This document shows, piece after piece, positions 7,376 through 60,885 of a stretch of 64,000 nucleotides of DNA (the stretch's first letter is position 1; each line of letters begins with the position of its first letter). The DNA lies in IMG/VR virus record IMGVR_UViG_3300009034_002371, positions 1-64,000 of that record; one strand, given 5' to 3'. The translations under genes and the position numbers were made by a program. The notes beneath the pieces were generated by a model. That model saw only the letters and a list, made by a program, of their open reading frames with translations, was not told the origin of the DNA and made no database searches. The DNA is from a virus.

Positions 7376-8113
7376 ATGAGACTTACAAATACCATAAGTA
7401 ATAATATAGCTTTTGGTGGGGAAACAGGTAAGTCTGTGAAATATGTGTCTCGTCTTATTGTCCCTGCCAACAGTTACAGGGACGTTGATATAGAACAAGT
7501 AATGCCCCTGGCCCTTTTTGATCGGGGTTTCCAGAACAGCGTTGCTAACGGCAGCATAGTTCTGACTTTCGGATCTGCAGATCAATCTTATCTGAGTCGA
7601 GTGCGAGGTTTTCTGAATAGTTTGTTGAATTTGAGCTCATCGAGTTCCTGCTCTTCGAGTTTCAGTAGTTGTTCATCGAGCTTCAGCAGTTCGAGTTTCA
7701 GTAGCTGCTCATCGAGCTTCAGCAGTTCGAGTAGTTGTTCATCGAGCTTCAGCAGTTCGAGTAGCTGTTCATCGAGCTTCAGTAGTTCGAGTAGCTGTTC
7801 ATCGAGCTTCAGTAGTTCGAGTAGCTGTTCATCGAGCTTCAGTAGCTGCAGTTCCAGCTTCTGTTCATCGAGTTCAAGCTTCTCGAGTTCATCTAGCTGC
7901 TCATCGAGCTTCAGCTCATCGAGTTCATGTTCAAGTAGCTTCTCAAGTTGTTCATCGAGTTCAAGCTTCTCGAGTTCATCTAGCTGCAGTTCCAGCTTCT
8001 CAAGTTGTTCATCGAGTTCCAGCTTTAGCTCGTCAAGTTCATGTTCAAGTAGCTTCAGTAGCTCGTCAAGTAGCAGTCCCTCGTTCTCAAGTTCTAGTTC
8101 AAGTACCCCTTAA
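7376..8113 (+). CDS. Small putative virion protein, paralog 3 of 3, with ~155-aa poly-Ser/Cys/Phe tail
   Basis: RLTNT...VSRLIVPAN...FDRGFQNSVANGSI followed by (SSSSSCSSSF)n. Confidence 0.75.
   Translation: MRLTNTISNNIAFGGETGKSVKYVSRLIVPANSYRDVDIEQVMPLALFDRGFQNSVANGSIVLTFGSADQSYLSRVRGFLNSLLNLSSSSSCSSSFSSCSSSFSSSSFSSCSSSFSSSSSCSSSFSSSSSCSSSFSSSSSCSSSFSSSSSCSSSFSSCSSSFCSSSSSFSSSSSCSSSFSSSSSCSSSFSSCSSSSSFSSSSSCSSSFSSCSSSSSFSSSSSCSSSFSSSSSSSPSFSSSSSSTP
7634..8104 (+). repeat. Ser-tract repeat, including four tandem 30-bp units (7711-7830) encoding the 10-aa unit SSSSSCSSSF
   Basis: atcgagcttcagYagttcgagtagYtgttc at 7711, 7741, 7771 and 7801. Confidence 0.9.
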
Positions 8114-8182
8114 TGTAGAGTTGGTAATATTTTCTGCCTGTTTGCAAGGTGAGAGATGGCAGAGTAGACTTGAGGGTATACG

Positions 8183-8995
8183 TTGACTTTTAAATACCCG
8201 TATCCTACAATTAAGGTACATGCAGATGTACAGGATGTTAGCTCGTGGCAGAATGCTATAGCTGATATCTGGCAGGAAATGCCAGACAAAGCTCGAAAAG
8301 TTGCAAATCAGTTAGTTTCAGTTGTTATAGTTGTAAATCCTAACGACCCGAGATTAACGCTGGGCTACACCAAAGAGCCAAAAGCAGCTGCTATTGGAAA
8401 TACTTTGATTCTCTCGTGTAGTGAAGATGTTAACGAGCTATTACACGAGGTAGCCCACACTATAGTTGATAGGGGTTTTACAGGCAGGGATCGGGAAGCA
8501 GTTGATCACTTCTATGATTTCTCGGATAGTGAAAGAGCTCCGTCAGAAAGACTAGCTGAAGATTTCTACTTTACCGTTAAAGGAGATGAGCCTTCCCCTT
8601 TTTGGCAATGGTGGTTTGAACGTGGTTTAGTTGAGGGAGAGAAAATGAGAACAGTGGTGGCCGAGAAAATAGCAAAGCTTGCACGGAACACAAGTGTGAA
8701 TCCTCTACACGTCGTTGAAGCAGTGCTAGATGCATTTGCCGAGGAACTTGTTTACGACTTCGGCGGTGAGGAGCATGTGTGGCTTTACGGTATCGCCAGA
8801 GAGGCTTTAAAGGAAGCTCAAAAGGAAGATCAGCTAGCCTATGAAAATCGCTCTGCCCCTCATCAGTACTACTATGCGGAGGACCTAGCAACTCCACCGA
8901 CCCGTCCTCGGAAACAACCGCTAGGTGAACCGCTGAAAGTTGAACGACCGGATGTTACAATGAGGGGGACATACACAACACCACCTATGGTGTAA
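8183..8995 (+). CDS. Zincin-like (HEXXH) metallopeptidase-domain protein
   Basis: LLHEVAH followed by ERLAEDF (third-ligand Glu region), typical of phage MPTase-like domains. Confidence 0.6.
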   Translation: MTFKYPYPTIKVHADVQDVSSWQNAIADIWQEMPDKARKVANQLVSVVIVVNPNDPRLTLGYTKEPKAAAIGNTLILSCSEDVNELLHEVAHTIVDRGFTGRDREAVDHFYDFSDSERAPSERLAEDFYFTVKGDEPSPFWQWWFERGLVEGEKMRTVVAEKIAKLARNTSVNPLHVVEAVLDAFAEELVYDFGGEEHVWLYGIAREALKEAQKEDQLAYENRSAPHQYYYAEDLATPPTRPRKQPLGEPLKVERPDVTMRGTYTTPPMV

Positions 8996-9025
8996 AAGTT
9001 TGAGCGTAATTTTGGAGGGTTTGAG

Positions 9026-12000
9026 ATGTTCGTTCCGAGAAAGGGTTTTGTCAGATACGGGAACAGAGTAACCATAGCTAGGGCTGGCACTTATCAGGAG
9101 GTGATTGGCACTACGGATGTTATTCTCGGCCCTCAAACTATGCAAAAACTTGCTGCTCTGGTTCCTGTAAGTGAGTATTCAGACAAGTATTTATACGTGA
9201 GAGCTAGGGCAGTTTCTGGGTATGAGAAATATGGGCCAAATGAGAACGGTGATGCTTTTGAGTGGCTGGAGTTGGCAAAAGCTTATCCCACCTTTGTCCG
9301 GGGTGGGATCTATAAGGACCATAATAATAAGGATCGCAGAGAGGCTGTTGGAATTGTAGTTGATGCCTGGCCCAATACTGATGAAGAGTTTGTTGAGGTC
9401 TTGATGGCTATTAACAAACAGAAGGCACCTAGGGAGGTTAAGCTAATAGAGTCCGGGAAGTTGACAGATGTCTCTATGGGGTGTGTAGTTGATGAGGCCA
9501 TATGCTCCGTTTGCGGTAACATTGCACGTGATGAGACTCAGTACTGCGATCATATTAGACAGGGTTTAAAGGGTCAGGTAATAGGTGGAGAGCCATGTTT
9601 TGAGTACAATAAAGGTGTCCGATTCTTTGAAGTCAGCTTGATAAGTCCCTGGAGCGAAGCTGCTGACCCCGCGGCTAAGATAAGGGAGACTATAGCTTCT
9701 AAAGTTGAGTTGGCTGGTTTCGAGGAGTGGATTGTAGATCACTCCGAATTGGACGAGACTATCCCCATTTTAAATAGGGAGGAGCGTGTAGGTATGGATT
9801 TCGTGTTTGGGCAGTTGGTGACTACTAGGGATGGTAGACGCGGGACTGTAACGGGTCAACAGGGCGAGGAAGTCACAGTTACGCTAGAGGGCTCCGGCGA
9901 TGAGCCTCTCCTGTTCCGTGCTGACTATTTAACTCCAATCGCCGTAGAGCCAAATAGTAAGGAGGTTGTAGAGATGGCGAAGGAAAAGGAAGCCGCCATG
10001 AGCCCTCGAGAAGCGCAAGGGGAAGGCCCTGAAGAGTATGATATGGAACATCCGTTCAGGGGCAATCCGATGCGTGGCCGATGGCATGGTGACTACGGCT
10101 CGCCCGGAGAAAAGTTTCAGCAGGATTTTGATCGTACTAATGTACCGTCGGATCCTGTTGACTTACGTGGGCAGCAGATGTCTAGTGAAAAGGAACGCGG
10201 TGACTACTTGCATAAGGGCTATACTGGTGATAAGGCAGAAGGGAAGGCTCCTATCGGTGCAAGTCGTCGCCGTCCTGTAACTGCTGCAGAGCTCGAGGAG
10301 CAGATGGATTACGCACTCGAACAGGCAGCAGATGCCGGTGTAGAGCTGGAAGAGGTTAAGGAGAAGGAGGCTAAGAGAACGGGTCTTTTTGACCGTGCGA
10401 AAGCTGTCTTCGGGATCGGCAAGGAAGCTGACTACACCGAGTATGATGAGGAAAACCCAGATAGGGGATCTATGATGCGTATGAGGGATCCGAGCGATGA
10501 CCAGTATAATTCGGCCTCGGAGTACTTTGATGCGCAGAAGGCTGAAGCTGATGCAAAGGATGCTGAGACTCGTACAGATATCGAAAGGCAGCGTCCTGTG
10601 ACCTATTCTAATACTCCAGAGGAGATTTCCAAGATAAGGTCAGTTTCTACAAAGACAGCAGGGGCTGAGGATGTAGATAAACTCGTGGATATGCTCAAGA
10701 AGGTCTTCAAGGAGGACGAGAAGAAGGTTACCGAGTTCGTCGATACCGTTCGTAAGTTGGATGAAGCAGATTTCGACGAACTGGCTAAGGCTCTCAAGGG
10801 CGTGAAGGAAGAAGAAGACAAAGAAGTTGAGAAAGCTAAGGACAAGGATAAAGAGGAAGAGCCAGAGGGTCCTCCAAAGAGACCAGAGGGTCCTCCAAAG
10901 AGACCAGAGGGTCCTCCAAAGAGACCAGAGGGTCTTCCAAAGAGACCAGAGGGTCTTCCTCCAGGTCGCCGTCCTGCACCTCCAACAGGTCCTCCAAAGA
11001 AACCGGTGGGTCTTCCAGGTGGTGCTCCAGGTGGTGCTCCTCCAAGACTCCCAGGTGCCCCTGGTCCTGGTCCTGGTGGTTTACCGATGGGCGATGTAAG
11101 AATGTATGCACGTCAGGCCATAGCTGCTAGAGAGCTTTCCAAGTTGGCAGCAACCCTTGGTCAGTGGGGTGATGAGGATCCTGTAGCACACGCCAAGAGG
11201 ATGGTGCTGCAGCAGATCTCTAGAGACCCAGCAACAGATCCTACTAGTATATTCTGGTTGGCTTCTGATGTCCGTGGCCTGGATGAAGAGCAGATGGGTC
11301 GGCTCGCTGGTGAGCTACACCTCGAAATCCCGGGTGTACACCCAAGAACAGCTTCGGTAGATTACGAGAGAATGACCAATGCTGAGATTTTGGGTGCATA
11401 CAAGGCTCTGGCAGCTAATGCAGTTTCTGATACTGCTCTAAAAGATGTTCTAACCGCTATGCTCCAGAGAGGCATTACATTGAAGGTAGCTGCAGAGCGG
11501 AAAGACGTCCTAAGATATATCTACGAGCGTATGACCAAGGACAATGTGCCCTATATTGAGGCTAGGAGGGAGGCTGATGTAAAGTTTGACATTATAAAGG
11601 ACAAACCCGATCAGCCTGGTACCCGCCCTCTAGGGTTTGGGCATGAAACTGAAGGTCCTGGTAGCTCGTCTGAGCTGGGCCATCAAGAGCCTAGTGACGG
11701 AAGACATCTCAGCCGCGGAACCCCAGGCGCAATGGGTGGTACACCTACCCCTTCCGGTGTTACGCCTAGGGAGTTTAACGAGCGGGTCCCGTATAGGAGT
11801 TCTGGTATGAGACGTGAAGCAGTTGACGGGGCGTTCCTAAATGATTATGACATAACCTATGGCACCAACACCCGTTGGGATGAGCGTGTCAAGACTATGT
11901 CAGAACAGGAGAACGCTACACAGAAGAGAGATTTCGCGGCAGAGCTGAGAGAAGCTCGGAAGCGGGAACTGGCGTCCAGAGGTGGCGAAGTAACTGCTGC

Positions 12001-13909
12001 TAGGTCTTTCTCAGAGTGGAAGTCCGCTCTAAAGAGGAAAGGTGCTCCCGCGAAGACCATTCGTAAGTTCGAGCACATTTGGAAATCGGCTCTCGATGAC
12101 GGCAAAGGCGAGGAATACGCAGCACGCGCTGCTATAGATTCGGTTCCGGCCCAGTATATCGAGAAACCTACCAAGGAGCATGGCCCCGAGAAGAAAGGCC
12201 CGATAAAGAAGTCCGATCTTCAGGCAACGCTGGTGGCTTATAAAGCCGGAGAGATTACCGACGCCGAGATACTCGAGATGCTGGTGGATGTTACAGATGA
12301 CGAGGCCACAGAGGCTGTTAGGACAGCAGCCGGTGCCGAGTACACAGGTCCCGAGATGCTTGGATCTGAGATAAAAGGTGCCCCTTCAGCTGATCTTGCT
12401 GTTGAGGAGACTAGGAAGCAGAAAAAGGATTTCCAGCAGGAGCTGAAAGAAGCAACGGGCGTCAAGCTCGGTCAGAGGCTCAGAGTGGCTGTAGGTGCCA
12501 GTGATGAAAGTCACCTCGCTGAGGTGATGGAAATCGTTACCGATAGCGATATAATCCACGTGGATTATGAGGACGGCATCCGTAACAGAGACGCTATAGA
12601 CCTTAAAGAGGGTCGCTCCAAAGTCTTTGGCCCTGTGCGTGTCTATACAAGACCAGAGATCCTAACGGTCAAGAAAGGTAACTGGATTGGTTACGGCGAT
12701 GGCGCTTCATGGAGCTTATATAACTTCCATCGCGAAAGTGGGAAGATAGCCGAGGTGAAGTTGGCCGAAGCAGATCCGGCAGAGATCGTTACGGACTTTC
12801 AACTGGCTGGGGAGGATGCAGTCCCCGAGTTCTTCGCTTCGAAGGCATATGGTGAAACTGTTCTCGAGAAGATGGAGGAACTGGAGACGCAGGGAGCACT
12901 CGATCCAGAAGAGGGTACAGGTGTTCCATCGGCAACTGAAGCCGCTCCTGGTGAGATAGCCGTTGGTGCTCGTGTAGTGATTGCTGAAGGTTGGATGCCC
13001 ACTGGTGAGGAGTCCGATGAGTTGGTCCACGACATCGTCCAGCTCCGAGACGAAGAGGTTGAAGGAGCAGTCGAGGCGGTTGATGATAGGACTGACGAGC
13101 TCCAGGTGGACTTTGGCGGCGATCGATCTATCATCCTCAGTACAGCTGAGGTAAGGTTAGCTCGGGATGCTAATGAGACAGGCACCGATGTCCGGTGGAC
13201 AGAGGAAAGTAGGGCTCAGGCTGAGCAAGAGAACAAGACACAACAGTCTGAGTTCGCAAAAGAGCAAGTGCTCTCCTCGTTCGGACCTGATTCTCAGAGA
13301 AGTACGCATCTTGCGGCAAAGACCGCTTCTAAGGTGGGCCAATTCGAGGAGCACACAGCGTTTATGAGCACCTTGGTAAGAGATGCAGGGTTGCGTGTTA
13401 AAGATGCACTTCCTCATGTAGTTCAGGCCTTCGAGATGACTGAAGAGGAGACTCAGGCATTTGTAGAGAGTGATGAGTATACGGAGGCTTTCGAAATGCC
13501 CTTGACTCCTAATAAAATGAATAGCGAACCTGAATTCGGTGCAGGTAAGGAAGTTACGCAGATGCGTGTGAAACTCGCCGGCATGAAGAAACGTCTCTGT
13601 GCCCGAATTGCCCAAGACATGTATAGCAGGGGCATGATTAAGGGCGTAACTGCGGATATGAGCGATGACGATATCCGGCAGGCACTTGACGATCAGATCG
13701 ATAGGCTGATGAAGATGGATGAGCAGGGTCTCTATGAGTTTGAAGAGGCTGTAAAATCGGCTTCAGACCCTGATGGAGTCGAGGCTCTCCGGAAACGATC
13801 AGCTAGGATTGGCCCAAGAGAGGGTACGCTGCAGCAGCCGCTGATAATGAGAGGTGCTAGCAAACCGGCATCGATGAACAGTCTGGATGATCCCGAGTTC
13901 TTCAAGTAA
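9026..13909 (+). CDS. Prohead (capsid maturation) protease fused to long cargo/scaffold region with SH3/KOW-like and ChaB-like segments
   Basis: N-terminal N.NGD.F...YKDHNN...G.VVDA...VSMGC..DEAICSVCG...YCDH...FFEVSLI..AADP.A resembles Zn-finger-containing HK97-type prohead proteases of large myophages; lies upstream of the capsid genes; charged helical C-terminus is scaffold-like; ChaB-like FEHIWKSALDDGKGEEYAARAAIDSV (~12070-12145). Confidence 0.75.
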   Translation: MFVPRKGFVRYGNRVTIARAGTYQEVIGTTDVILGPQTMQKLAALVPVSEYSDKYLYVRARAVSGYEKYGPNENGDAFEWLELAKAYPTFVRGGIYKDHNNKDRREAVGIVVDAWPNTDEEFVEVLMAINKQKAPREVKLIESGKLTDVSMGCVVDEAICSVCGNIARDETQYCDHIRQGLKGQVIGGEPCFEYNKGVRFFEVSLISPWSEAADPAAKIRETIASKVELAGFEEWIVDHSELDETIPILNREERVGMDFVFGQLVTTRDGRRGTVTGQQGEEVTVTLEGSGDEPLLFRADYLTPIAVEPNSKEVVEMAKEKEAAMSPREAQGEGPEEYDMEHPFRGNPMRGRWHGDYGSPGEKFQQDFDRTNVPSDPVDLRGQQMSSEKERGDYLHKGYTGDKAEGKAPIGASRRRPVTAAELEEQMDYALEQAADAGVELEEVKEKEAKRTGLFDRAKAVFGIGKEADYTEYDEENPDRGSMMRMRDPSDDQYNSASEYFDAQKAEADAKDAETRTDIERQRPVTYSNTPEEISKIRSVSTKTAGAEDVDKLVDMLKKVFKEDEKKVTEFVDTVRKLDEADFDELAKALKGVKEEEDKEVEKAKDKDKEEEPEGPPKRPEGPPKRPEGPPKRPEGLPKRPEGLPPGRRPAPPTGPPKKPVGLPGGAPGGAPPRLPGAPGPGPGGLPMGDVRMYARQAIAARELSKLAATLGQWGDEDPVAHAKRMVLQQISRDPATDPTSIFWLASDVRGLDEEQMGRLAGELHLEIPGVHPRTASVDYERMTNAEILGAYKALAANAVSDTALKDVLTAMLQRGITLKVAAERKDVLRYIYERMTKDNVPYIEARREADVKFDIIKDKPDQPGTRPLGFGHETEGPGSSSELGHQEPSDGRHLSRGTPGAMGGTPTPSGVTPREFNERVPYRSSGMRREAVDGAFLNDYDITYGTNTRWDERVKTMSEQENATQKRDFAAELREARKRELASRGGEVTAARSFSEWKSALKRKGAPAKTIRKFEHIWKSALDDGKGEEYAARAAIDSVPAQYIEKPTKEHGPEKKGPIKKSDLQATLVAYKAGEITDAEILEMLVDVTDDEATEAVRTAAGAEYTGPEMLGSEIKGAPSADLAVEETRKQKKDFQQELKEATGVKLGQRLRVAVGASDESHLAEVMEIVTDSDIIHVDYEDGIRNRDAIDLKEGRSKVFGPVRVYTRPEILTVKKGNWIGYGDGASWSLYNFHRESGKIAEVKLAEADPAEIVTDFQLAGEDAVPEFFASKAYGETVLEKMEELETQGALDPEEGTGVPSATEAAPGEIAVGARVVIAEGWMPTGEESDELVHDIVQLRDEEVEGAVEAVDDRTDELQVDFGGDRSIILSTAEVRLARDANETGTDVRWTEESRAQAEQENKTQQSEFAKEQVLSSFGPDSQRSTHLAAKTASKVGQFEEHTAFMSTLVRDAGLRVKDALPHVVQAFEMTEEETQAFVESDEYTEAFEMPLTPNKMNSEPEFGAGKEVTQMRVKLAGMKKRLCARIAQDMYSRGMIKGVTADMSDDDIRQALDDQIDRLMKMDEQGLYEFEEAVKSASDPDGVEALRKRSARIGPREGTLQQPLIMRGASKPASMNSLDDPEFFK
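10862..10960 (+). repeat. 21-bp tandem repeat (~4.7 copies) encoding PEGPPKR
   Basis: ccagagggtcYtccaaagaga repeated from 10862. Confidence 0.95.
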
Positions 13910-13930
13910 GTTCCACTGTGGGTTATTATG

Positions 13931-13970
13931 TAGATGATGTCTAATAAATCTATTTATTAGACATCATCTA
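13931..13970. promoter_or_regulatory. Perfect 19-bp inverted repeat between protease gene and next gene, abutting its RBS
   Basis: tagatgatgtctaataaat-ct-atttattagacatcatcta; GGAGGTG begins at 13972. Confidence 0.7.
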
Positions 13971-13985
13971 TGGAGGTGCGGACAG

Positions 13986-17780: not shown

Positions 17781-17800
17781 GTCATAGTCGCTGTTGAGCT

Positions 17801-18389: not shown

Positions 18390-18397
18390 ATAGAATT

Positions 18398-19393: not shown

Positions 19394-19396
19394 GAT

Positions 19397-43581: not shown

Positions 43582-43602
43582 CTGCTGTTGGGGGAGTTTA
43601 GC

Positions 43603-45629: not shown

Positions 45630-45688
45630 ATAGTAAGTTAATAACACGAGGTTTCCGTTTAAGAGATTAGTAGTTGTCCTAGACGGGG

Positions 45689-46315: not shown

Positions 46316-46324
46316 GGTGATCTT

Positions 46325-47628: not shown

Positions 47629-47675
47629 TGTTGGGGAGTGAAATTCCGTAGCCCCCTCGTTAACACGGTAGTAAT

Positions 47676-51073: not shown

Positions 51074-53192
51074 GTTAATACACTTTGTATGGTTTGGACC
51101 TAGACCTTTAGGTTATACTGAGTTTCTGGCTGTTAAAACAGCCCGTAAGATATATGGGGTTGAACCATACCTCTGGACAGACAATTCTGTCCCGGAAAAC
51201 GAGTGGTTGTTAAGAATAAAAGAGATCGCCGTACAAAAACAGATTAAAAGTGAGTGGCAGCAGATCGCTAACCTTGCCAGCAAGTATAATTACAAATCAG
51301 ACTATCTAAGATATCAACTCCTACACGATTACGGGGGTTTGTACCTAGATATAGATACCCTCTGTGTGAAACCTATCTTCGGCCTCGTTCTGCAGGGTTT
51401 GGTCGCCGCGCAGCAGCAGTCTTCCAAAGAGCCCATCAATGGCGCTGTTATGTATGTTGCCGAGCCTCAGCATCCAGTTGTGGCTGCCCTCTTAAACGAA
51501 TCTATAAGAATACTCAGAGAGGTCAAGTCTATGACCTGGTCAGAGATTGGCCCTAAATTGCTTTCCAAAACTTTGAAACCGAATATTGATTGTACTATAC
51601 TACCTCATGAACATTTCTATTTCTATAAGTCGTCTCACTGGCGGCAGATATTTGAGGATAATCCTATAGATGACCAGATGTGTGTTATTCATTGGTGGAA
51701 CAAACATGCAGGTGCATTTGCCAGGAAAACTGTTAACCCAGAATATATTAGGACTTCTAACAGCCTCTATGCCAAGATGGTAAAGAGAGTGTTAGGTTCG
51801 GATTATGGTTTGTCCCAGAAGACACCTGCACTGTCGGCTATTGTTTCTATTATGGGTGATCACCCTCAGCGAGCCAGAAACTTTGAAGCGACTCTGCGGT
51901 GTATACAGCAACAAGACTTCCAAGACTATGAGCTAGTAATTGTAGAGCAGTATATAGAGAAGCCTCTATGGGAGAGTCGTGCTAAATCTCTAAATGCAAC
52001 TTACATGACCATCACAGAGAGTACCCTACCTGACTGGGCACGCTTCTGCCTTTCGTGGTGTAAGAATGTCGGAGCCCGGGTATCTAAGCATGATACTTTA
52101 TTGATGCTTGATGGTGATGTGGCATTTGGTAATGATTACTTTTCACGTGTGGTTAGTACTTTCAGGACTGATTGGGGTTACCTTATGGGATTTAGCTTGC
52201 TTATCCGGTTGAACACCAAAGGTACTGGCATCTACTTGAGAGATGGGACCTACCATGCGGAGTGGCCACGTGAGCATGTTGAGAAGACTAACAATCCAGG
52301 TTTCTCAGGTAGTGGAGGCGGGGGTGGTTCCGTTGTCTTCGACAAGCGGTTTTTCTTTGATGTTATAGGGGGTTATAGTGAGAATTATTTCGGCTGGGGT
52401 AAAGAGGATAAAGATTGTCTACTGAGGGCTTATAGATTTGCTGGAGGCAATGAAGAGGGTAGGTTAAGGCGTATGGACTACACCCTACTGCATTTGTTCC
52501 ATCGCCACATAGGACTCGCGCATAGGCCGAAGGAAGCGACTACCCACTATTTCAAGTATACACGGCCATATCCACGTCGTGTTACACATCTTCTCGTGGA
52601 GGCCCAAGTAGGTAGACCGGAGCATAGAACTCTTATAGATCTGTCGCGTTTGGATTCTCCCAGTGCTGGTTGTGTTGAACTTCAAAGATCCCCGTTGTCC
52701 CAGGAAGAACGTGTGAGTATGTTGGGTAACCACCACCCCGAGTATAGTTTTGAAGATTTCACTAATCAAAAGTTGTTCGATGCCACAGATCTAGACGGCT
52801 CTGTCATTGTTGGCAGTTGTTTCTATCAGGATCCCGATTCTCAAGATGCAGATCCTCGCGTGAAAGTTTTTCCTGATGATATGCAGGGGGTTACGTTTAT
52901 TGAATGCAATTTAGATAATGTGTATGTACCCCCAGGTAATACAGTTGACCTCTTGTGTTCTTGTAGGAGGATCAAACGTCAGAATGACGGAGAGTCTTGG
53001 ATACTTAATGAAGATCTAGTGCCTATTGAGCCATTGAGCAAGGAACGCTTAGCCGCGGTTGGTGGTAATATAGTCCCCAGGAAGATACCGCGACGTGCTA
53101 TACGTAAAGAGGAATTGCGTCGCTTACGCAGTGAACGAATGAAGAAGTTCCAAGAGTTTTACGCGTCTCGAGAGAGGCAGGATGAAGAATGA
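51063..53192 (+). CDS. GT32 + GT2/7 fusion with unknown C-terminal domain
   Basis: GGLYLDID (GT32); LDGD...GGYSE..GWG.ED (GT2/7); then DFTNQ...GSCFYQ...FIECNLDNV domain. Confidence 0.82.
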   Translation: MTCRLIHFVWFGPRPLGYTEFLAVKTARKIYGVEPYLWTDNSVPENEWLLRIKEIAVQKQIKSEWQQIANLASKYNYKSDYLRYQLLHDYGGLYLDIDTLCVKPIFGLVLQGLVAAQQQSSKEPINGAVMYVAEPQHPVVAALLNESIRILREVKSMTWSEIGPKLLSKTLKPNIDCTILPHEHFYFYKSSHWRQIFEDNPIDDQMCVIHWWNKHAGAFARKTVNPEYIRTSNSLYAKMVKRVLGSDYGLSQKTPALSAIVSIMGDHPQRARNFEATLRCIQQQDFQDYELVIVEQYIEKPLWESRAKSLNATYMTITESTLPDWARFCLSWCKNVGARVSKHDTLLMLDGDVAFGNDYFSRVVSTFRTDWGYLMGFSLLIRLNTKGTGIYLRDGTYHAEWPREHVEKTNNPGFSGSGGGGGSVVFDKRFFFDVIGGYSENYFGWGKEDKDCLLRAYRFAGGNEEGRLRRMDYTLLHLFHRHIGLAHRPKEATTHYFKYTRPYPRRVTHLLVEAQVGRPEHRTLIDLSRLDSPSAGCVELQRSPLSQEERVSMLGNHHPEYSFEDFTNQKLFDATDLDGSVIVGSCFYQDPDSQDADPRVKVFPDDMQGVTFIECNLDNVYVPPGNTVDLLCSCRRIKRQNDGESWILNEDLVPIEPLSKERLAAVGGNIVPRKIPRRAIRKEELRRLRSERMKKFQEFYASRERQDEE

Positions 53193-55129
53193 GAACTATA
53201 CCAGTAAAGGAATATGTTGAAGATAGGATAGAAGATAACGGATCGTATAGTCGGACTTTTCTGTCCTATCCTAAATACCATAGGCATGAAGATGGTACCC
53301 TCCATGAGACTGATTGCACTATTATAGAGAGTCAGGATCCTGATTGGGATTGGGAAGTTACCGAGGGTGTCTGGACTCTTTATGTTAAAAGAGATGGTAC
53401 CTTCCAGTCGCGGTTCCATGAACATACTGTTACAAGGAAGCCGGTTGGTATTGGATTTTATAATATCAGAACCAAGACTTCCATAAACAGAGTTGAGTTT
53501 GATTTAACTACATGGGACGTTGAGGTTGGGCATGATACCATAACATGGACAAATCCTGAGAACGGTATTATCTTTAAGGTATGGTATATACATGATCAGG
53601 CTCGAGGTATCGTGGAACTTCCACAAGAAGTACAAACAGAGTTATTAGCTAAGAGGCGCAAGAGCTGGTCCCGTGAAAATACTTATGTTAGCGTTATTTA
53701 CGATGCTGATATGAATTTTCAGGATGAGGATATGGAGTCCGAAGATCGGATCAGACATAAGCATCCTGATTGGGAGATCCAGATCGGAGGGCACCACATC
53801 GTCCATGAAAAATTCGGTCGGAAACCGAATCCACATCCCCCAGAGGTTGAGCGGGAAGATGCAGATGAGTCACTAGATTATACATGGCCCAAACGTAAGA
53901 TATACTTTGCCGAACAGAAGAAGTTCATCGAAGCCTGTAGAATAGATGCTCTGGAAAGCGAAGATGGGAAAATCATTTTCAATACTACCGATACCTTTGG
54001 TTTTGCTTTCTGCGAAGATGCCTATATCCGTGGCTATCCTAATTACAATAATACCAACTATAATGGTGTCGGTCTTATTGTAGATGGGCACACCAGTTCC
54101 GCGTGTGAGTATTTTTCGTTTATCAGATTCAACTTGAGTAGTCAGCTTGGTATCCCAGGTACTATATCTCTTGTTCGCTTGTACTTATACTGCTATAATA
54201 CTTCCTACGGTGGGATCGATTACATGTATGCCAGCCCGACACTCAAGCCGTGGACAGAAACGGGAGTTACCTGGCGTAGATGGAATGGCTCTGCGTATTG
54301 GAATGACCCGGGAGCTTGGTACGGGTTTTATGACTGGGAGGGATGTGAATACGATTTCAATACCCTGAATGGGGCTGGTTGTGATATTAGTAAGTATTAC
54401 GCCTCTAGGCCGGTTAATGAAGGTCACGAGGATTCCTATATAGCTATTGGTGATCTTGGGTTCCATAATATGTTTGACCATCTCCAGGCCCAGTGGGAGG
54501 CCGATAAGTGGTATGGTTGGAAAATCCACAACCCGTCTGACGAGCTTGGGAGAGCATATTTTAGAGATTCTGAGTATGCGACTGTTGGTCAGAGGCCCTA
54601 TTTAGAAGTTACTTGGGTATCTAGTAGTTCAAGTAGCTCTGCCTCGTATAGCTGTAGTTCCTCAAGTTCCAGCTCGTCCCACTCCAGTTCTTCCTCGTTT
54701 AGTTCTAGTTCTTCCAGCTTCAGTAGTTCAAGCTCATCGTGTTCTAGTTCCTATCCAGGTCCATACTACGTTAGGGCGGACGCACTCGGTGGAGGTGTGG
54801 GAGATGCCGATACTCAGGCTCGAGCTCTTACTCCGGAAGAATTTAGAACTCATAATGCAGGGTCCCCGGTAACCTATTACGTTAAAGGAAAATTTGGAAC
54901 ATGTTTAGGTGACTACGCATTTAGTGGTAACTTAAACTACTCGGCAAGGGATGGTAATTTTGCTAATGCTATGCTTATCAAGGGATACCTGAACAACGGG
55001 CCACTTGACGTAGTCCACGGAAGGTATCGTCCAAGATTTATTCTTGGGGATGTCTCTCTGAGTTCGTCAAGCTCGTGTAGTTCAAGTTCTGGTTCTTCAA
55101 GTGTTAGTTCTTCAAGTAGCTCTACTTGA
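53189..55129 (+). CDS. Virion surface protein: N-domain + DNRLRE-like domain + Ser tract + beta-helix N-terminal cap + Ser tail
   Basis: EDAYI...FIRFNLS...LYLY...W.ETGVTW...F.DSE....RPYLEVTW (DNRLRE-like); YYVRADA.GGG.G...RPR cap. Confidence 0.7.
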   Translation: MRTIPVKEYVEDRIEDNGSYSRTFLSYPKYHRHEDGTLHETDCTIIESQDPDWDWEVTEGVWTLYVKRDGTFQSRFHEHTVTRKPVGIGFYNIRTKTSINRVEFDLTTWDVEVGHDTITWTNPENGIIFKVWYIHDQARGIVELPQEVQTELLAKRRKSWSRENTYVSVIYDADMNFQDEDMESEDRIRHKHPDWEIQIGGHHIVHEKFGRKPNPHPPEVEREDADESLDYTWPKRKIYFAEQKKFIEACRIDALESEDGKIIFNTTDTFGFAFCEDAYIRGYPNYNNTNYNGVGLIVDGHTSSACEYFSFIRFNLSSQLGIPGTISLVRLYLYCYNTSYGGIDYMYASPTLKPWTETGVTWRRWNGSAYWNDPGAWYGFYDWEGCEYDFNTLNGAGCDISKYYASRPVNEGHEDSYIAIGDLGFHNMFDHLQAQWEADKWYGWKIHNPSDELGRAYFRDSEYATVGQRPYLEVTWVSSSSSSSASYSCSSSSSSSSHSSSSSFSSSSSSFSSSSSSCSSSYPGPYYVRADALGGGVGDADTQARALTPEEFRTHNAGSPVTYYVKGKFGTCLGDYAFSGNLNYSARDGNFANAMLIKGYLNNGPLDVVHGRYRPRFILGDVSLSSSSSCSSSSGSSSVSSSSSST

Positions 55130-55187
55130 TGGTACATATTTACGCCTTGACTGTACTTAGGGTGAATTTGTAATTGGGGGTTGTTGT

Positions 55188-58100
55188 ATGAAACCTCAAC
55201 CAACGGGTTTATATACCGAAGACGCGATAGAATCGGGTGGTATGCACCATACCACCTTCCTATCCTATCCCAAATATCATCGACATGAAGATGGTACTCT
55301 CCATGAGACTGATTGTGTTATCAGGGACAGTCAGGACCCTGATTGGGATTGGGAAGTTATCGAGGGTGTCTGGACTCTTTATGTTAAAAGAGATGGTACT
55401 TATCAGTCCCGATTTCATGATTATACTATCACGAGAAAGCCAGTTGGTGTTGGGTTCTGTAACACACATTCCAAGAAGTGTGTCGTTAAGATAGACTTTG
55501 ATCTGAACTCCTGGGTAGTCAAGATCGATGGGGATACTGCAACATGGACAAATCCCGATAACGGTATTGTTTTCAAAGTCCAGTATATACATGATCAGGC
55601 TCGAGGTATCGTAGAACTTCCACAAGCAGTACAAACACAACTGTTAGAGGATTGTGGATCCTGGCCAGTTGAAGATACCTCCGTTTGTGTTATTTATGAT
55701 GCCGATATAGACTTCCTTAGTGAAGATGTAGATACTGTAGATAGTATAATAGATGGGAACTCGAAGTGGGTAGTTAAAGTTGGAGGACTTTATGTAGTTC
55801 ACGAGAAGCATGGACTGGTAAGTAAAGAACACCGCGATAATCTCGCTTGGCAAAAGCATACGATATACCTTCCTGAACAAAAGAGATATATTGAAGCATG
55901 TGCTCTAGATGCTTTAAAAAGTGAAGATGGCGTACTTATCTTTAACGATACTGATACGTTTAAGGAAGGTGTGGATGGCTACTCAGGCTGCGAGGATACT
56001 TATATAGAGTTAAGTAGTGAAACCACCCACGGTAGTTCTACCCAGATATACTGCGACGGGGACTCTTGGGATACAAAGAAAGTCTTGATTAAGTTTGACC
56101 TAAGTGGTGAGATTCCACTAGTTCCTCATCAAACAATAACTTCTGCTTCCCTGGGTCTATACGTTCTTAACCACTTTGATGGCCCAGCTGACTCCCTTCG
56201 GATTATGTGTGCAGGTGTCCTTAAACCATGGACAGAAGATGAGGCTACCTGGACGCGCTGGCATAAAACAAATGACAAGTGGTGGCACAGTAGCGGCTGT
56301 GATGCTAAGAATGACTATGCCTACTTCAATAGTTTTAGTGGTTATGGGTATGATAGATTTAGTAGTTGGACCCAAGCGTTTATTAACGAAAGTGATGAGG
56401 ATGACTACACTTCATGGGTTGTTAGACCATGGCAAATACAAAAGCAGTATGATGCTCAGCTCTGGTATGGTTGGGTACTCGACCCTGGCGTTCCAGAGCA
56501 TGTAGAAATTACTTTTGCTAGTTCGGAGCATGCTGATCCAACAAAGCGGCCGTATCTGACAGTTACCTGGGAACCAACTAGTTCCTCAAGCTCCAGTTCG
56601 AGCTTCAGTAGTAGTTGTTCCAGTTCGAGCTTCAGTAGTAGTAGTTCTTCATGGGGCCCCTACAGTTGTCAGTTTGGAGATTATACAGTACTACAACACC
56701 TTCATTTTGAAACTGAAAACCCTGATGGGATCCAAATTGGTAAATATAGTATTGTCCATAACTGTTATGCTAACCAGGCCTCCCCCACTGCAGACTATCC
56801 AGCGTGGAAAGCAACTGGAAGCGGATTTAATGTAACTTCGTTCATCAGCTGTGAAGGGGCTAGTGTTGGTGGGTACGCCTTCTATACAGATCTTGAGGAT
56901 ATAACCTTCACAGGGTGCCTTGCTCGTGATAGTAATGTTGGTTTTTATGTTGGAAACCAGGCTATCAGATTAGTCCATAATCTGATTTATAACTGTGCAC
57001 GTGGTATACATATAGCAAGTAGAGATACCTTTATACATGGCAATACTATTTACAACTGTAGTACCTGTGGAATATATCTTGGTACTACTTGGGCCAGTGT
57101 GTACATTCTAGGCAATATTTTAGATTCCTGTGACTATGGTATATTGGCATCTTTTCGACAACCGGCATGCTATCTTGATTGGAACAATTTCAGTAATAGC
57201 CTCACTCTAGATATAGCCCAGTCTGGTGGCCAAGACGTTGTGAATAAGGGGCCGAATACTACCTCCCTTGATCCTGGTTTCTTTGATATAGGAAGTTTAG
57301 ATTTCCGTGTTGGTCAACATATGAGGGGACTTGGTGTTAAGTCTAATTTTGGTAGTAATAATATTATAGCAGCTAGTTGTATCGGCTATCCGGATCAGGG
57401 AGCCATACAGCGGAGAGAGGTAATTGGTGAGGATGCAGCGGTATGGGAGACAGGACCTGATGCACATACCGGAATTGGTTATGTGAAGCTGAGTCCTACT
57501 CACGCTAGTAGATATCCCCTGAAGTGGGAATTCTTAGCTCCTGTCAAAGCTGATCGTGCTCTTCAGTTTAGCTTTTGGCGTAAGGGGAGTTTTAGTGGTA
57601 CATTTCAATTTCTTGCAACAGGTGTTGGTATAAGCATATCTGAGGTTGTTGCTGTACCGGGTTCGTATCAACAACATATATCCCCTGTGGTGACTCCAAC
57701 TTCGGATCAGTTTGCCAAGATAACGTTACAAGCGCAAGGAACAGGTACTATCTATGTCGATGACTTTGGAACTTCGCAAAGTTGTTCCTCAAGCTCATCG
57801 TTCTCAAGTAGTTGTTCCTCAAGCTCATGTAGTAGTTCCTGTTCGTCAAGTTCATGTAGTTCATCGTTCTCAAGTAGTTGTTCCTCAAGCTCATCAAGTT
57901 CATGTAGTTCATCGTTCTCAAGTAGTTGTTCCTCAAGTTCATGTTCGAGTAGCTTCTCAAGTAGTTGCTCTTCGAGCTCCAGCTTTAGTTCATCATGCTC
58001 AAGTAGCTTCTCAAGTTCATGTAGCAGCTCCTCGTTCTCAAGCAGCTGCTCATCGAGTTCATCATGTTCAAGTAGCTTCTCATCGAGTTCATCATGTTCA

Positions 58101-58589
58101 AGTAGCTTCTCAAGTAGCTGTTCATCGAGCTTCTGTTCATCAAGTTCATGTTCAAGTAGCTTCTCGAGCTCCTGTTCATCGAGCTTCAGCTCATCGAGTA
58201 GCTGTTCAAGTAGCTTCAGTAGCTGCAGTTCAAGCTTCAGCTCATCAAGTTCATGTTCAAGTAGCTTCTCGAGTTCATGCTCTTCGAGCTTCAGCTCATC
58301 GAGTTCATGTTCAAGTAGCTTTAGTAGCTGCAGTTCATCGTTCTCAAGTAGCTGCTCATCGAGCTTCAGCTCATCGAGTTCGTGCTCAAGTAGTTTTAGT
58401 AGCTCATCGAGTAGCAGTTTCAGTTCATCGAGTTCATGTTCAAGTAGTTTCTCAAGTTCATGTTCAAGTAGCTTCTCAAGTTGTTCATCGAGCTCCAGCT
58501 TTAGTTCATCATGTTCAAGTAGCTTCTCAAGTTGTTCATCGAGCTCCAGCCTTAGTTCATCATGTTCAAGTAGTTCGAGCATACAGTAG
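55188..58589 (+). CDS. Virion surface protein: N-domain + DNRLRE-like domain + Ser tract + beta-helix body + jelly-roll/CBM-like domain + ~265-aa Ser/Cys/Phe tail
   Basis: N-terminus paralogous to 53189; FKEGVDGYSGCEDTYI...FASSE....RPYLTVTW; middle aligns with aa ~98-470 of 58599. Confidence 0.75.
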   Translation: MKPQPTGLYTEDAIESGGMHHTTFLSYPKYHRHEDGTLHETDCVIRDSQDPDWDWEVIEGVWTLYVKRDGTYQSRFHDYTITRKPVGVGFCNTHSKKCVVKIDFDLNSWVVKIDGDTATWTNPDNGIVFKVQYIHDQARGIVELPQAVQTQLLEDCGSWPVEDTSVCVIYDADIDFLSEDVDTVDSIIDGNSKWVVKVGGLYVVHEKHGLVSKEHRDNLAWQKHTIYLPEQKRYIEACALDALKSEDGVLIFNDTDTFKEGVDGYSGCEDTYIELSSETTHGSSTQIYCDGDSWDTKKVLIKFDLSGEIPLVPHQTITSASLGLYVLNHFDGPADSLRIMCAGVLKPWTEDEATWTRWHKTNDKWWHSSGCDAKNDYAYFNSFSGYGYDRFSSWTQAFINESDEDDYTSWVVRPWQIQKQYDAQLWYGWVLDPGVPEHVEITFASSEHADPTKRPYLTVTWEPTSSSSSSSSFSSSCSSSSFSSSSSSWGPYSCQFGDYTVLQHLHFETENPDGIQIGKYSIVHNCYANQASPTADYPAWKATGSGFNVTSFISCEGASVGGYAFYTDLEDITFTGCLARDSNVGFYVGNQAIRLVHNLIYNCARGIHIASRDTFIHGNTIYNCSTCGIYLGTTWASVYILGNILDSCDYGILASFRQPACYLDWNNFSNSLTLDIAQSGGQDVVNKGPNTTSLDPGFFDIGSLDFRVGQHMRGLGVKSNFGSNNIIAASCIGYPDQGAIQRREVIGEDAAVWETGPDAHTGIGYVKLSPTHASRYPLKWEFLAPVKADRALQFSFWRKGSFSGTFQFLATGVGISISEVVAVPGSYQQHISPVVTPTSDQFAKITLQAQGTGTIYVDDFGTSQSCSSSSSFSSSCSSSSCSSSCSSSSCSSSFSSSCSSSSSSSCSSSFSSSCSSSSCSSSFSSSCSSSSSFSSSCSSSFSSSCSSSSFSSSCSSSSSCSSSFSSSSSCSSSFSSSCSSSFCSSSSCSSSFSSSCSSSFSSSSSCSSSFSSCSSSFSSSSSCSSSFSSSCSSSFSSSSSCSSSFSSCSSSFSSSCSSSFSSSSSCSSSFSSSSSSSFSSSSSCSSSFSSSCSSSFSSCSSSSSFSSSCSSSFSSCSSSSSLSSSCSSSSSIQ
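57774..58580 (+). repeat. Longest Ser/Cys/Phe low-complexity tract (~800 bp)
   Basis: Imperfect repeats of tcaagtagcttc / tcatcgagttcatgt units; same DNA vocabulary as 7634-8104. Confidence 0.92.
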
Positions 58590-58598
58590 AGGTAGAGG

Positions 58599-60011
58599 AT
58601 GGCTGCACCCAAGACAAGATATGTTCGCGCTGACGCCGCTGGTGGTGGTAATGGTACCGTAGATGCTGCAAGCGGGCCAGGCGGTAATTATGCCTGGACG
58701 TGGAATGAGTTTATGTCCAATCTCCCACGCTATGGCGATACCTACTATATTAAAGGTCCTTACACATATACCCTTACAACGGACCTTGATTTCTATGCCG
58801 GACGTTCTAGTGCCCCTATAGTTGTTGAAGGATATTATAATTCCCCCGGAGACAACCCTACAGGAAATAATAGACCTAGAATTGCTTGCGGTGTCCATGA
58901 GTTGGACCTAGGTGGTTATTTCTATTTTAGGAATTTCCGAATAACAATAAGCGAGTGGCTTGGATGTTATTCCGAGGGTCCGAATACAATTGTACAAAAT
59001 TGTAGTAGTTATAATACCGGTCCTGCTATTGACTATCCAGCTGCCTTCTCCGGCGGGGGAGGCGTTTGGATTGACTGTGATGGGAGAGCAAGAGACGCCG
59101 GGTGGTTTTTCGAGGGTAATGTTATCGGTTGCTGTGCTTACAACTGCGATTACGGTTTTATCTCATGGGCGCACGATGTTTGCATTATACATAGTATAAC
59201 AAAAAATTGCGGCTACGGGGTATGGATGTACTCCGGCGGGAGTGCTATATTGAACAATACATTCTATAACTGTTCCTCAGGTGGAATCTTTGGCGAGAAT
59301 CAGGCTGTTGGCCCTATTATAGGTAACGTGTTTGACTCTGGTGATAAAGGTGTAGAGTATGATGTTCCGGCAGGTCGGGAGGTGTGGCTTGATTACAATA
59401 ATTATGAGAACCTCTCCGGGAGTGATACTGTAAACTGTAGCAAGGGGGAGGACTGGACCAGCGATGATCCCGAGTTCTTCGACTTCGGAACTAGCGACTT
59501 TCGGGTAGGTCCAGGTATCAGAGGACAGGGATTCCCGAAGTGGCAAGATTTCTTTGACCATATCCTCAACCCCAATTTGGAGGGTTGGTCTGATCAGGGA
59601 GCTTTGCAGCGACGAGAAGAAGTAGGGGAAATGTCTGTCGAGAAGGAGACAGGTCCTAACGCTCGCGGGGGCACTGGATCATGTGTACGATTCACTCCTT
59701 CATCTACTGTACACCCTCAAGTATGGGTTTTCAAGGTTCCCTGCCAGGATAGTATTGCTGTACAGTTGGACATGTGGCATAAAATCACGTCCGGCTTTAA
59801 TGGGTCTTTTACATTTAGTGCTTCTGGTAGTGGTATCACTCCAATAAATGAGGAAGTAGTGGCGCTTACAGATGATGGTGTTTACCATGAGTTTCTTTCC
59901 AGTATAATGACGCCGACCGAGTCCGGTTACATTGCAGTAACACTGAGAGCAAAGCAGGGTGTAGTTTCCGGTAGCATTTTCGTTGATGACATTACTACTC
60001 TAGAAGTATAG
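58599..60011 (+). CDS. Intact beta-helix + CBM-like virion protein
   Basis: RYVRADAAGGG.G...GDNPTGNNRPR...NNTFYNC...DPEFFD...DQGALQRRE...IFVDD. Confidence 0.72.
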   Translation: MAAPKTRYVRADAAGGGNGTVDAASGPGGNYAWTWNEFMSNLPRYGDTYYIKGPYTYTLTTDLDFYAGRSSAPIVVEGYYNSPGDNPTGNNRPRIACGVHELDLGGYFYFRNFRITISEWLGCYSEGPNTIVQNCSSYNTGPAIDYPAAFSGGGGVWIDCDGRARDAGWFFEGNVIGCCAYNCDYGFISWAHDVCIIHSITKNCGYGVWMYSGGSAILNNTFYNCSSGGIFGENQAVGPIIGNVFDSGDKGVEYDVPAGREVWLDYNNYENLSGSDTVNCSKGEDWTSDDPEFFDFGTSDFRVGPGIRGQGFPKWQDFFDHILNPNLEGWSDQGALQRREEVGEMSVEKETGPNARGGTGSCVRFTPSSTVHPQVWVFKVPCQDSIAVQLDMWHKITSGFNGSFTFSASGSGITPINEEVVALTDDGVYHEFLSSIMTPTESGYIAVTLRAKQGVVSGSIFVDDITTLEV

Positions 60012-60027
60012 GGGTTGAGGTAGCAGT

Positions 60028-60885
60028 ATGGCAAGCTCAAGTTCTAAAGTACCCCGTGATACAGGTACATTTGAGTATCGTTATCGAGATAGCGCTCTGC
60101 CACCTGTAATTCATGATGATGAAAAGTATAATCTACCATCACAGGATTTCATCGATGAACTAAACGACCCTTCATTTTTCCAGGGAGATTTTTATGAGGA
60201 TGTAAGTCTAAGTTCTAGCTCATCGAGCTCTTGTTCTCCAAGTCCAAGTTCATCAAGCTCAAGTAGTATAAGTCTTTCGTGTTCTAGCTCTTCAAGTTAT
60301 AGTTCACAGTCGGTAAGTAGTTCATCTTCAAGTTGTAGTAGTCTTGAAGCCCCAGACGTAACTGACGCCAGAGTAGACCCACCACGTTTTCGTTCCGGTG
60401 AAATTATATGTGCTAGGTATACCTATCATGGTGCTTTTCCTGAAGCCGGTTCTCAGATCCGTTGGTATAAGAACGATGTATATCAGCCGGATCATGATAA
60501 TGAGATATGTTTCGAAGTAACTGGTCAACGGGGAGATGTTTGGTTCTTCTATGTTACACCATGTGATGCGTTTGTATGTGGGAACCCTGTGGAGTCTCTC
60601 CCTGGGATTATGATAAATAACCCTCCGTCTGCACCCTCCCGTATAGAGATTGTTCCTCATAATCCACAGGTGGATGATGACTTATTTGCAATTGTAGAGG
60701 GATCTGTCGATCTCGATGGTGACAGGATTATATATCATATAACATGGTACAGACTCAGGGACGGGGTTACTGAGGAGTTAGTAGCGTATCGTAATAAGAC
60801 TACGGTACCGTATACTGAGGTACAGGAGGGAGATGTATTCTCCATTGAGGCTAGGGCATTTGACGGAAGTGATGAGTCCGGGTAG
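60028..60885 (+). CDS. Ser-tract protein with two Ig-like domains
   Basis: Ser tract ~60205-60342; S.IRWYKN...VTP.D...G and NNPPSAP..I.P..P..DDL...D.DGD.I.Y...W...DG patterns. Confidence 0.65.
   Translation: MASSSSKVPRDTGTFEYRYRDSALPPVIHDDEKYNLPSQDFIDELNDPSFFQGDFYEDVSLSSSSSSSCSPSPSSSSSSSISLSCSSSSSYSSQSVSSSSSSCSSLEAPDVTDARVDPPRFRSGEIICARYTYHGAFPEAGSQIRWYKNDVYQPDHDNEICFEVTGQRGDVWFFYVTPCDAFVCGNPVESLPGIMINNPPSAPSRIEIVPHNPQVDDDLFAIVEGSVDLDGDRIIYHITWYRLRDGVTEELVAYRNKTTVPYTEVQEGDVFSIEARAFDGSDESG

Follow-up and report, generated by a model that had tools for sequence, protein, structure and literature searches.

Serine-rich tracts punctuated by cysteine and phenylalanine, interleaved with a glycan-gene island in the structural region of a large tailed phage

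We analyzed bases 1–64,000 (the window) of the IMG/VR record IMGVR_UViG_3300009034_002371, an 82,761-base contig of an uncultured virus, and found that several of its proteins carry long tracts composed almost entirely of serine. In-frame tracts of 74–80% Ser are present in five proteins of the window and in one protein just beyond its edge. The DNA of the longest tracts is shared among genes far beyond the level expected from protein sequence and codon composition, and the tract genes are interleaved with a large island of glycan genes. With moderate confidence, we read the tracts as disordered polyserine segments on accessory outer-virion proteins that are encoded by a DNA cassette, the internal ones serving as tethers and the C-terminal tails as acceptors of O-glycosylation.

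Composition and repeat unit of the Ser tracts

A six-frame scan for Ser-rich windows located tracts on the + strand at 7625–8110, 43453–43542, 54611–54760, 55049–55132, 56568–56660, 57771–58589 and 60196–60351. Two more were found beyond the window edge on the same contig, at 64669–65073 and 65431–65550. An initial annotation of the window, made from its letters, had listed the same tracts, and the scan agrees with it within a few codons, except for an additional tract at 42153–42167, which is a trivial SSSSS within the protein P0006.

Three of the tracts are long and nearly pure Ser/Cys/Phe, with CSSSF as their core. T1 is the tail of P0001 (159 residues, comprising 124 Ser, 17 Phe and 15 Cys), T7 is the tail of P0002 (269 residues, comprising 208 Ser, 33 Cys and 25 Phe), and T9 lies in the open reading frame (ORF) at 64597–66696 (tract 64675–65067; 131 residues, comprising 101 Ser, 13 Phe and 11 Cys). 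Units were defined by cutting the three sequences after every Phe. Their lengths range from 5 to 22 residues, and the commonest is SSSSSCSSSF, which accounts for 18 of the 53 units that end in Phe; the near-exclusive use of Ser, Cys and Phe with this recurring unit, as described initially, is therefore borne out. CSSSF holds 41 of the 59 Cys residues, and successive Phe residues are for the most part separated by 7–10 residues. Cys makes up 8–12% of the tracts compared with 1.3% genome-wide.

Both families of Ser codons are used, the AGY share being 54% in T1, 48% in T7 and 50% in T9. This agrees with the mixture of TCN and AGY codons pointed out in the initial annotation, and because both are used the Ser runs are not the result of simple trinucleotide slippage. 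Codon use in the long tracts is skewed in other respects: TCT accounts for only 2–4 of the 101–208 Ser codons of a tract (24% genome-wide), and TTC for 47 of the 55 Phe codons (34% genome-wide). The skew fits the amplification of a founder unit.

Cys-ladder repeats of the antifreeze type are an example of a regular solenoid fold. Such a fold is not supported for the tracts, the unit lengths being too variable. In a single-sequence AlphaFold2 (AF2) prediction, the tail had a predicted local distance difference test (pLDDT) score of 25–31 and no secondary structure, in a model that was poor overall, even for a domain that folds well with an alignment. Disorder of the tracts is suggested by this prediction.

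Translation in the Ser frame

The sense +1 and antisense −1 frames are also open across T1 and T7; in T9 a single stop interrupts the +1 frame, and the antisense frame is open. The Ser reading might thus be illusory, the DNA encoding instead an antisense coiled-coil-like product of Leu, Glu, Asp, Lys and His, or acting as a non-coding DNA or RNA repeat. In keeping with this alternative, a 286-aa antisense ORF spans T7, and the T1 RNA (7634–8110) folds better than shuffled sequences (z = −6.3 for dinucleotide and −3.3 for synonymous shuffles). However, the +1 and −1 frames are open automatically because codons beginning with TC, AG, TG or TT cannot create stops there, which makes the antisense reading (LLEHELDELK...) a by-product. 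T1 and T9 are each covered by a start codon-bearing ORF on the + strand alone, and by none on the antisense strand. The antisense frame would spell all of its 217 Leu codons as CTN, in contrast to the 35% TTR among the Leu codons of the genome, and the other 66 of the 67 called ORFs of the record are all on the + strand. The extra RNA structure is not seen in T9, where the comparison with synonymous shuffles was not significant (z = −1.6, 3 of 60 shuffles). Antisense or other-frame coding was rejected on the grounds of the automatic opening and the missing start codons, and we regard the whole alternative as hardly credible.

Positive indications of Ser-frame translation come from the flanking sequences. 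The domains on either side of the internal tracts of P0002 and P0003 are in frame with the tracts and conserved in 6 of 6 aligned homologues, and the 131-aa T9 is followed in the same frame by more than 500 residues, LVIVD repeats among them. The mixed spelling of Ser by TCN and AGY codons also speaks for this frame. From these observations, the conclusion that the tracts are real and translated in the Ser frame is well supported.

In T1, the junctions of AGC and TCG codons create AGCT, TCGA and CTCGAG palindromes. RNA structure as a cause of the codon order was set aside as a by-product of junctions of this type; the effect is not significant in T9. Stop codon readthrough or recoding, which would turn the tails into linkers, was rejected as well, since several stops block it: P0002 and the next gene are in frame with two TAGs between them, and P0001 is followed by four stops. 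The stop codons in use are TAG (31), TGA (20) and TAA (15).

Tract DNA shared among genes

A 30-nt unit (AGC TCA TCG AGT TCA TGT TCA AGT AGC TTC) is present with identical codons in T1, T7 and T9, that is, in three genes, and a 31-mer quoted in the initial annotation is found at 7910, 58290, 64726 and 64900. As a null model, 300 shuffles were made for each tract pair, in which synonymous codons were permuted while the protein sequence and the codon counts were kept. The longest word shared by a pair among T1, T7 and T9 is 38–44 nt (null mean 17–19, maximum 30), and a pair shares 58–72 24-mers (null mean 0.1–0.2, maximum 7). In none of the three pairs did any of the 300 shuffles reach the observed sharing. 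The similarity between tracts is thus beyond that expected from composition.

The comparison was extended to a sister phage, G001 (IMGVR_UViG_3300005573_001166, 159 kb), whose capsid protein is 90% identical and whose structural region is syntenic. Three of its genes contain long tracts, located on NHL/LVIVD propeller proteins and built from a different, 36-nt unit (SS[I/S]SSSSSSTSF) that has no Cys. Tract pairs within one genome share 48–139 18-mers, while all 9 cross-genome pairs share none. The exact 30-nt unit had no match in the viral contigs searched. Judged from these sequences, tract DNA is homogenized within a genome and replaced between genomes, which is the pattern of concerted evolution of a portable cassette. 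The description of the tracts as portable and copied between loci has held up in this respect, and maintenance of the cassette within a genome by recombination is well supported.

Tract-bearing proteins and module borders

P0001 (7376–8113, + strand) consists of a folded domain of about 85 residues and the 159-aa tail (tract 7634–8110). Two paralogues of the domain without a Ser tail are encoded in tandem upstream on the same strand, at 6702–6962 (86 aa) and 7043–7357 (104 aa), with 36% and 40% identity to residues 1–88 of P0001; the region 6702–8113 in the head module therefore contains three tandem copies. A search with the N-terminal domain gave 14 matches at E ≤ 0.001, of which 10 are stand-alone proteins (84–104 aa) and 4 are fused to a propeller-like domain of about 310 residues. 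The tail of P0001 starts exactly at the point where the tail-less family members end. With an alignment of the family, AF2 predicted a small alpha/beta domain (pLDDT 87). The model had no match in PDB at E ≤ 0.001, and its BFVD matches were all uncharacterized phage proteins.

P0003 (53189–55129, + strand) is composed of an N-domain, a CBM96 domain (E 3.7e-9), a Ser tract (54611–54760), a beta-helix cap piece of about 100 residues and a Ser tail (55049–55129). The neighboring P0002 (55188–58589, + strand) is composed of an N-domain, a CBM96-like region, a Ser tract (56568–56660), the remainder of a beta-helix and the 269-aa tail (57780–58586); its pectate-lyase-like beta-helix match is weak and below the cut-off. 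The next gene (58599–60011, + strand) encodes an intact beta-helix paralogue (Pfam Beta_helix/NosD) without a tract. Residues 4–98 of this protein align with residues 523–620 of P0003, between its two Ser tracts, and residues 127–467 align with residues 518–862 of P0002, between its Ser linker and tail. Because the intact paralogue aligns piecewise between them, the Ser tracts of P0003 and P0002 mark module borders. The beta-helix module is split over the two neighbors, P0003 having the first 100 or so residues and P0002 the rest, and the split is kept in homologues on other contigs.

The homologues on other contigs (P0007, 47%; P0008, 45%; P0009, 42%; P0010, 33%) all keep a Ser tract after the CBM96-like domain. 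The position of this tract is conserved in 6 of 6 homologues, and tracts as short as about 25 and as long as about 230 residues occur. Its punctuation also varies: Phe only in P0007, types with Cys, Phe or Tyr in others (Phe/Tyr in P0008 and P0009), and Arg in P0010. At the other end of the proteins, P0001 and P0002 terminate 1–2 residues past their tracts, and their tails of 159 and 269 residues link nothing.

The remaining tracts are in three proteins. P0005 (42277–43581, + strand) has a Ser/Ala tract near its C-terminus (43453–43542), and a Ser/Phe tract occupies the corresponding position in its sister-phage homologue (44% identity). P0004 (60028–60885, + strand) has about 60 N-terminal residues, a Ser tract (60196–60351) and a C-terminal domain. 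In the sister phage, the orthologue of P0004 (174 aa) aligns with residues 108–279 alone, begins past the end of the P0004 tract and has no tract itself. Just upstream of this orthologue, at 115501–116591 of the sister genome, there is a 1.1-kb AT-rich segment with internal repeats and no ORF of at least 60 aa. The third protein is encoded on the + strand at 64597–66696 of the record, 597 nt past the window end. It begins with two QGAWQ motifs, which are followed by the S/C/F tract of 131 residues, the domain in common with P0004, another Ser tract and LVIVD repeats. Its S/C/F tract looks like a long leash from the short N-terminal motif to the distal domains.

The proteins had been described initially as unrelated. 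This is correct for P0001, which is unrelated to the rest, but P0002 and P0003 are paralogues, and P0004 shares a domain with the protein at 64597–66696. The partner domains, CBM96 and beta-helix here and NHL and LVIVD propellers in the sister phage, are typical of phage fibers and spikes.

A glycan island between the capsid and tail sheath genes

The record has an estimated completeness of 27% (CheckV). The capsid protein, encoded at 16782–17780, shares 34% identity with the major head protein of Bacillus phage G. Domain matches identified a head maturation protease within 9026–13909 and a tail sheath at 66774–68273 of the record. The tracts are therefore located among the late, structural genes of a large tailed phage. 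A search of named phages gave no DNA match.

Between the capsid and tail sheath genes, 12 ORFs have 15 glycosyltransferase-domain matches (Pfam). Together with other glycan genes, they make up about 30 kb in two blocks on the + strand. Block A (21147–42233) encodes a GT4 enzyme, a GT4+GT9-like protein and seven PF13524 paralogues with eight domains. According to Pfam and NCBIfam, its further enzymes, amino-sugar enzymes among them, are a NeuD/PglB/VioB-family acetyltransferase, which scores above the curated cut-off, a 4,6-dehydratase-like protein, two DegT aminotransferases that are PseC/LegC-like, a GFO oxidoreductase, a second hexapeptide acetyltransferase and a methyltransferase. Block B (44430–53192) encodes a NosD-like beta-helix protein, three Methyltransf_24 domains, three Gly_transf_sug (DXD) domains, two GT2-type domains and a B12-binding radical SAM enzyme. 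P0006 had been read as a GT8-like enzyme from a DXD-like motif only; it has no Pfam or NCBIfam match and is not counted.

The genes of the seven PF13524 paralogues (24164–28261 and 33689–36606) flank the amino-sugar cassette, and their C-terminal parts are 60–91% identical at the DNA level, which points to a recent tandem expansion. The radical SAM enzyme (48495–49754) scores best in NCBIfam against the HpnJ, BchE, RiPP (ribosomally synthesized and post-translationally modified peptide) and P-methyltransferase types, all below their cut-offs; it may be a sugar C-methyltransferase or may act on proteins. Lanthionine or thioether cross-linking of Ser and Cys was also considered as a candidate. 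No lanthipeptide-type family was found among the ORFs scanned, and the single radical SAM enzyme is of the B12-binding type and scores below every equivalog cut-off.

None of the 67 ORFs in the 82.8-kb record has two or more hydrophobic 19-mers, and hence the record encodes neither a flippase or polymerase nor an initiating membrane transferase or oligosaccharyltransferase. The lack of polytopic membrane proteins fits stepwise soluble glycosylation of a soluble acceptor, although host membrane enzymes may also take part.

The sister phage has a glycan island at the same site, but its genes are largely different: GT4 and GT2 enzymes, a nucleotidyltransferase, a GDP-mannose-dehydratase-like protein, a GHMP kinase, a SIS-HAD fusion, thiamine-dependent enzymes and a reductase. 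Among the few shared parts are the GT4 enzyme at 21147–22367 (+ strand; 57% identity) and the GT9-like domain of the GT4+GT9-like protein at 22560–24227 (+ strand; 49% identity over 253 aa). The Pfam Glyco_transf_9 match to this domain is 26.3 bits (cut-off 22). BAHT enzymes are GT9-like protein O-heptosyltransferases that act on autotransporters (TibC/AAH). In a search of PDB, the sole match of the domain was the lipopolysaccharide heptosyltransferase II WaaF (1psw; E 0.052), and no TibC entry was matched.

Four more distant relatives (G002–G005; capsid about 60% identical, 28–60% complete) were compared with the two sister genomes. Block A is missing from all four. In these relatives, 1.5–4.5 kb separates the capsid gene from the homologue of the gene at 43588–44415; the corresponding distance is 25.8 kb in the present genome and 34 kb in the sister phage. 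In G003, the homologues of the genes at 43588 and 61022 are adjacent, with block B absent between them, and the homologues of the gene at 62519 and of the sheath gene are likewise adjacent. Relative to this backbone, all of the tract genes therefore lie in insertions, together with the glycan genes. Each of the four relatives has at most one match to PF00534 and at most one to PF00535, and none has a Ser tract of more than 18 residues. The sister phage lacks P0001, and the syntenic neighbors of P0001 adjoin each other there. Wider homologue scans, made with single sequences and with alignments, returned four distant viral loci, all of them tract-less, and three metagenome loci that were short or distant; bacterial genomes yielded none. 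Among sequencing runs, sediment metagenomes gave only small shares (0.08–0.10), and no RNA run was listed; neither observation is used as evidence here.

Two other features of the structural region were observed. In the 1627-aa head protein that includes the protease, five near-identical 21-nt repeats at 10857–10959 encode (R)PEGPPK and precede a Pro/Gly-rich stretch. The region 17856–20224, which immediately follows the capsid gene, encodes an ECF-type sigma factor, an APH/EcKL-like kinase and a methyltransferase, which form the start of the accessory block and have no homologue in the sister phage.

Discussion

The tract proteins are probably fiber- or spike-like accessory proteins of the outer virion, built from CBM96, beta-helix and propeller modules, one of them having a small head-module domain instead. 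Their tracts are encoded by a repeat cassette with units of about 21–30 nt around TGY-Ser3-TTC, spread and kept alike within the genome by recombination or gene conversion, and the tract DNA marks module borders and probably mediates their formation. The internal tracts act as long flexible tethers between modules, like polyserine linkers, a role that is well supported. The C-terminal tails of 159 and 269 residues, which carry no cargo, most probably accept O-glycosylation. The numerous soluble phage glycosyltransferases whose genes lie among the tract genes would add the sugars in the cytoplasm of the host, and the outcome would be a mucin-like sugar brush on the particle. This role of the tails is the best-supported functional reading, and it draws on genetic linkage and analogy. 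The initial proposal of an O-glycosylation tag is supported by the genomic context only, because tract genes are interleaved with a soluble glycan island and the sister phage has both at the same site; the modification itself is what we infer.

Polyserine linkers (PSLs) are described, in the passages of PMC2386152 drawn on here, from modular carbohydrate-active enzymes of Saccharophagus degradans, Cellvibrio japonicus and Teredinibacter turnerae. In these enzymes, a mostly-Ser run stands between a carbohydrate-binding module (CBM) and a catalytic-type domain. The internal tracts of P0002 and P0003, and those of P0004 and of the protein at 64597–66696, are runs of this composition, tens of residues long, between folded modules. 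Mixed TCN and AGY codons, which are found in the present tracts, were reportedly also observed in PSLs by Howard et al. in 2004. However, PSL hosts are secreted CBM-bearing enzymes, whereas the present proteins are encoded in a structural region and belong to a phage particle, and their resemblance to such enzymes consists of CBM96 in P0003 and the weak pectate-lyase-like match in P0002. The present tracts also differ in their periodic Cys and Phe, their length of up to 269 residues, the homogenization of their DNA among genes and their location inside a glycan island, and the two longest have nothing folded after them.

Three glycosylated systems provide further comparisons. In mycobacteriophage virions, glycans are found at the C-termini of capsid and tail-tube subunits, as stated in a passage of PMC12619734 citing Freeman 2023; citing passages in PMC12582341 and PMC12894461 also cover this glycosylation. 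By these accounts, phage glycosyltransferase genes lie within or next to structural genes both there and here, and the glycans occupy C-terminal extensions of virion proteins, as we would expect for the Ser tails. The targets and the scale are different: capsid and tail tube with few transferases there, accessory fiber or decoration proteins with 15 glycosyltransferase-domain matches and amino-sugar pathways here. The capsid protein of the present phage ends without a Ser-rich extension. The fibrils of the Megavirinae (the Mimivirus group) are decorated by way of clade-specific clusters of 6–33 viral genes for glycosyltransferases and for nucleotide-sugar pathways leading to rare bacterial-type amino sugars, according to the abstract of PMC10117803. 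These clusters resemble the two different islands at one site in the present phage and its sister, but they belong to giant eukaryotic viruses with unrelated fibril proteins, and that abstract mentions no polyserine acceptor. Serine-rich repeat (SRR) adhesins, surface proteins of Gram-positive bacteria, are described as having long disordered Ser-rich repeats that are O-glycosylated in or at the cell by dedicated transferases. SRR adhesins require an accessory Sec system (SecA2/SecY2) and cell-wall anchoring. By contrast, the record encodes no polytopic membrane protein and thus nothing SecY-like among its 67 ORFs (no search was aimed specifically at SecA2), and the repeat chemistry is that of Ser, Cys and Phe. 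A literature search for polyserine or serine-rich tracts together with phage glycosyltransferases, covering main texts without supplements, found no paper that describes the pairing.

Several points weigh against glycosylation of the tails. The proposal is drawn from the genome sequence. The products of the glycan island could act elsewhere, for example on DNA, the host envelope or other virion proteins. No glycosyltransferase of the island matches a known protein O-glycosyltransferase, their best PDB matches being generic GT4 enzymes. For the polyserine linkers of bacterial carbohydrate enzymes, no need for glycosylation is known. The co-occurrence of tracts and island is seen in two sister genomes against four incomplete and non-independent fragments, and it is effectively one evolutionary event. 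Disorder itself is suggested by a single-sequence model that was poor for the whole protein.

In a rival explanation, the tracts are plain, unmodified polyserine linkers and entropic bristles that only give reach and flexibility to fiber modules, the tails are leftovers or spacers, and the island acts on DNA, the host surface or other proteins. The internal tracts do occupy the place of the polyserine linkers of carbohydrate enzymes, with a CBM on one side and a catalytic-type beta-helix on the other; such linkers are present in over a quarter of the more than 180 S. degradans depolymerases, according to PMC2386152. The N-proximal tract of the protein at 64597–66696 tethers a short N-terminal motif to distal domains, and viral glycosyltransferases also modify DNA or host serotype, as noted in PMC12619734. 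What this explanation accounts for poorly is that the 159- and 269-aa tracts end their proteins and join nothing, with several stops blocking readthrough, and that the tracts and the glycan genes were inserted together in the late structural region. We consider it unlikely, though a serious competitor.

The Cys and Phe residues invite a different explanation, already proposed in the initial annotation, a cohesive mesh in which Phe residues act as stickers in a Ser spacer and Cys residues form disulfides after leaving the reducing cytoplasm, giving cross-links within or between particles. The regular punctuation agrees with this, in particular the concentration of Cys in CSSSF, the spacing of Phe and the enrichment of Cys over the genome, and aromatic punctuation recurs in most lineages (Phe in the sister phage and P0007, Phe/Tyr in P0008 and P0009). 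However, there is no Cys in the tracts of the sister phage, the closest relative, with its S9-T-S-F units, or in that of P0007, and P0010 uses Arg. The variable unit lengths imply no regular fold, and dense glycosylation, if present, would hinder contacts between Phe residues. Given the sequences of the relatives, in which Cys is not conserved, the cross-link idea appears weak, and we give the mesh a slim chance. Phosphorylation of the Ser runs by a phage or host kinase, which would make the tails polyanionic and able to bind cations or minerals or to serve as an adhesive, is less probable still. Its one, weak lead is the APH/EcKL-type kinase-like protein encoded at 18398–19393, also within the accessory block (Pfam E 5.5e-4, below the cut-off; atlas score 0.98), but this family mostly acts on small molecules and the protein may be a sugar kinase here. 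It has no homologue in the sister phage, which has tracts too, and no protein-kinase family was found among the ORFs scanned.

If the tails are glycosylated, a more far-reaching picture may be drawn, which we offer tentatively and consider somewhat doubtful as a whole: a mucin-like glycocalyx built by the phage itself. Concertedly evolving S/C/F tails on accessory fiber and head proteins would be O-glycosylated in the cytoplasm by more than a dozen soluble transferases using rare amino sugars made by the phage, and the island would be swapped wholesale between relatives like a serotype locus. The tract DNA would serve as a homology cassette with which receptor-binding modules are exchanged, split and re-tethered, and the lineage-specific Cys would add thiol chemistry, either a disulfide or an S-linked sugar.

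P0001, with its 85-aa domain and 159-aa tail, is a small and concrete substrate on which acceptance of sugars may be tested, and the GT4 enzyme and the GT9-like domain that are conserved between the phages are candidate enzymes for transfer of the first sugar. Whether or not the tails are glycosylated, the homogenization of tract DNA within the genome clearly illustrates how a linker cassette at module borders evolves in concert, as judged from the sequences. If the tails are sugar acceptors, the glycan coats of large environmental phages would rival those of giant viruses in genetic investment. This would bear on how such phages stick to or slip through host capsules and slime, on how they evade recognition, and on the mosaicism of their fiber genes.

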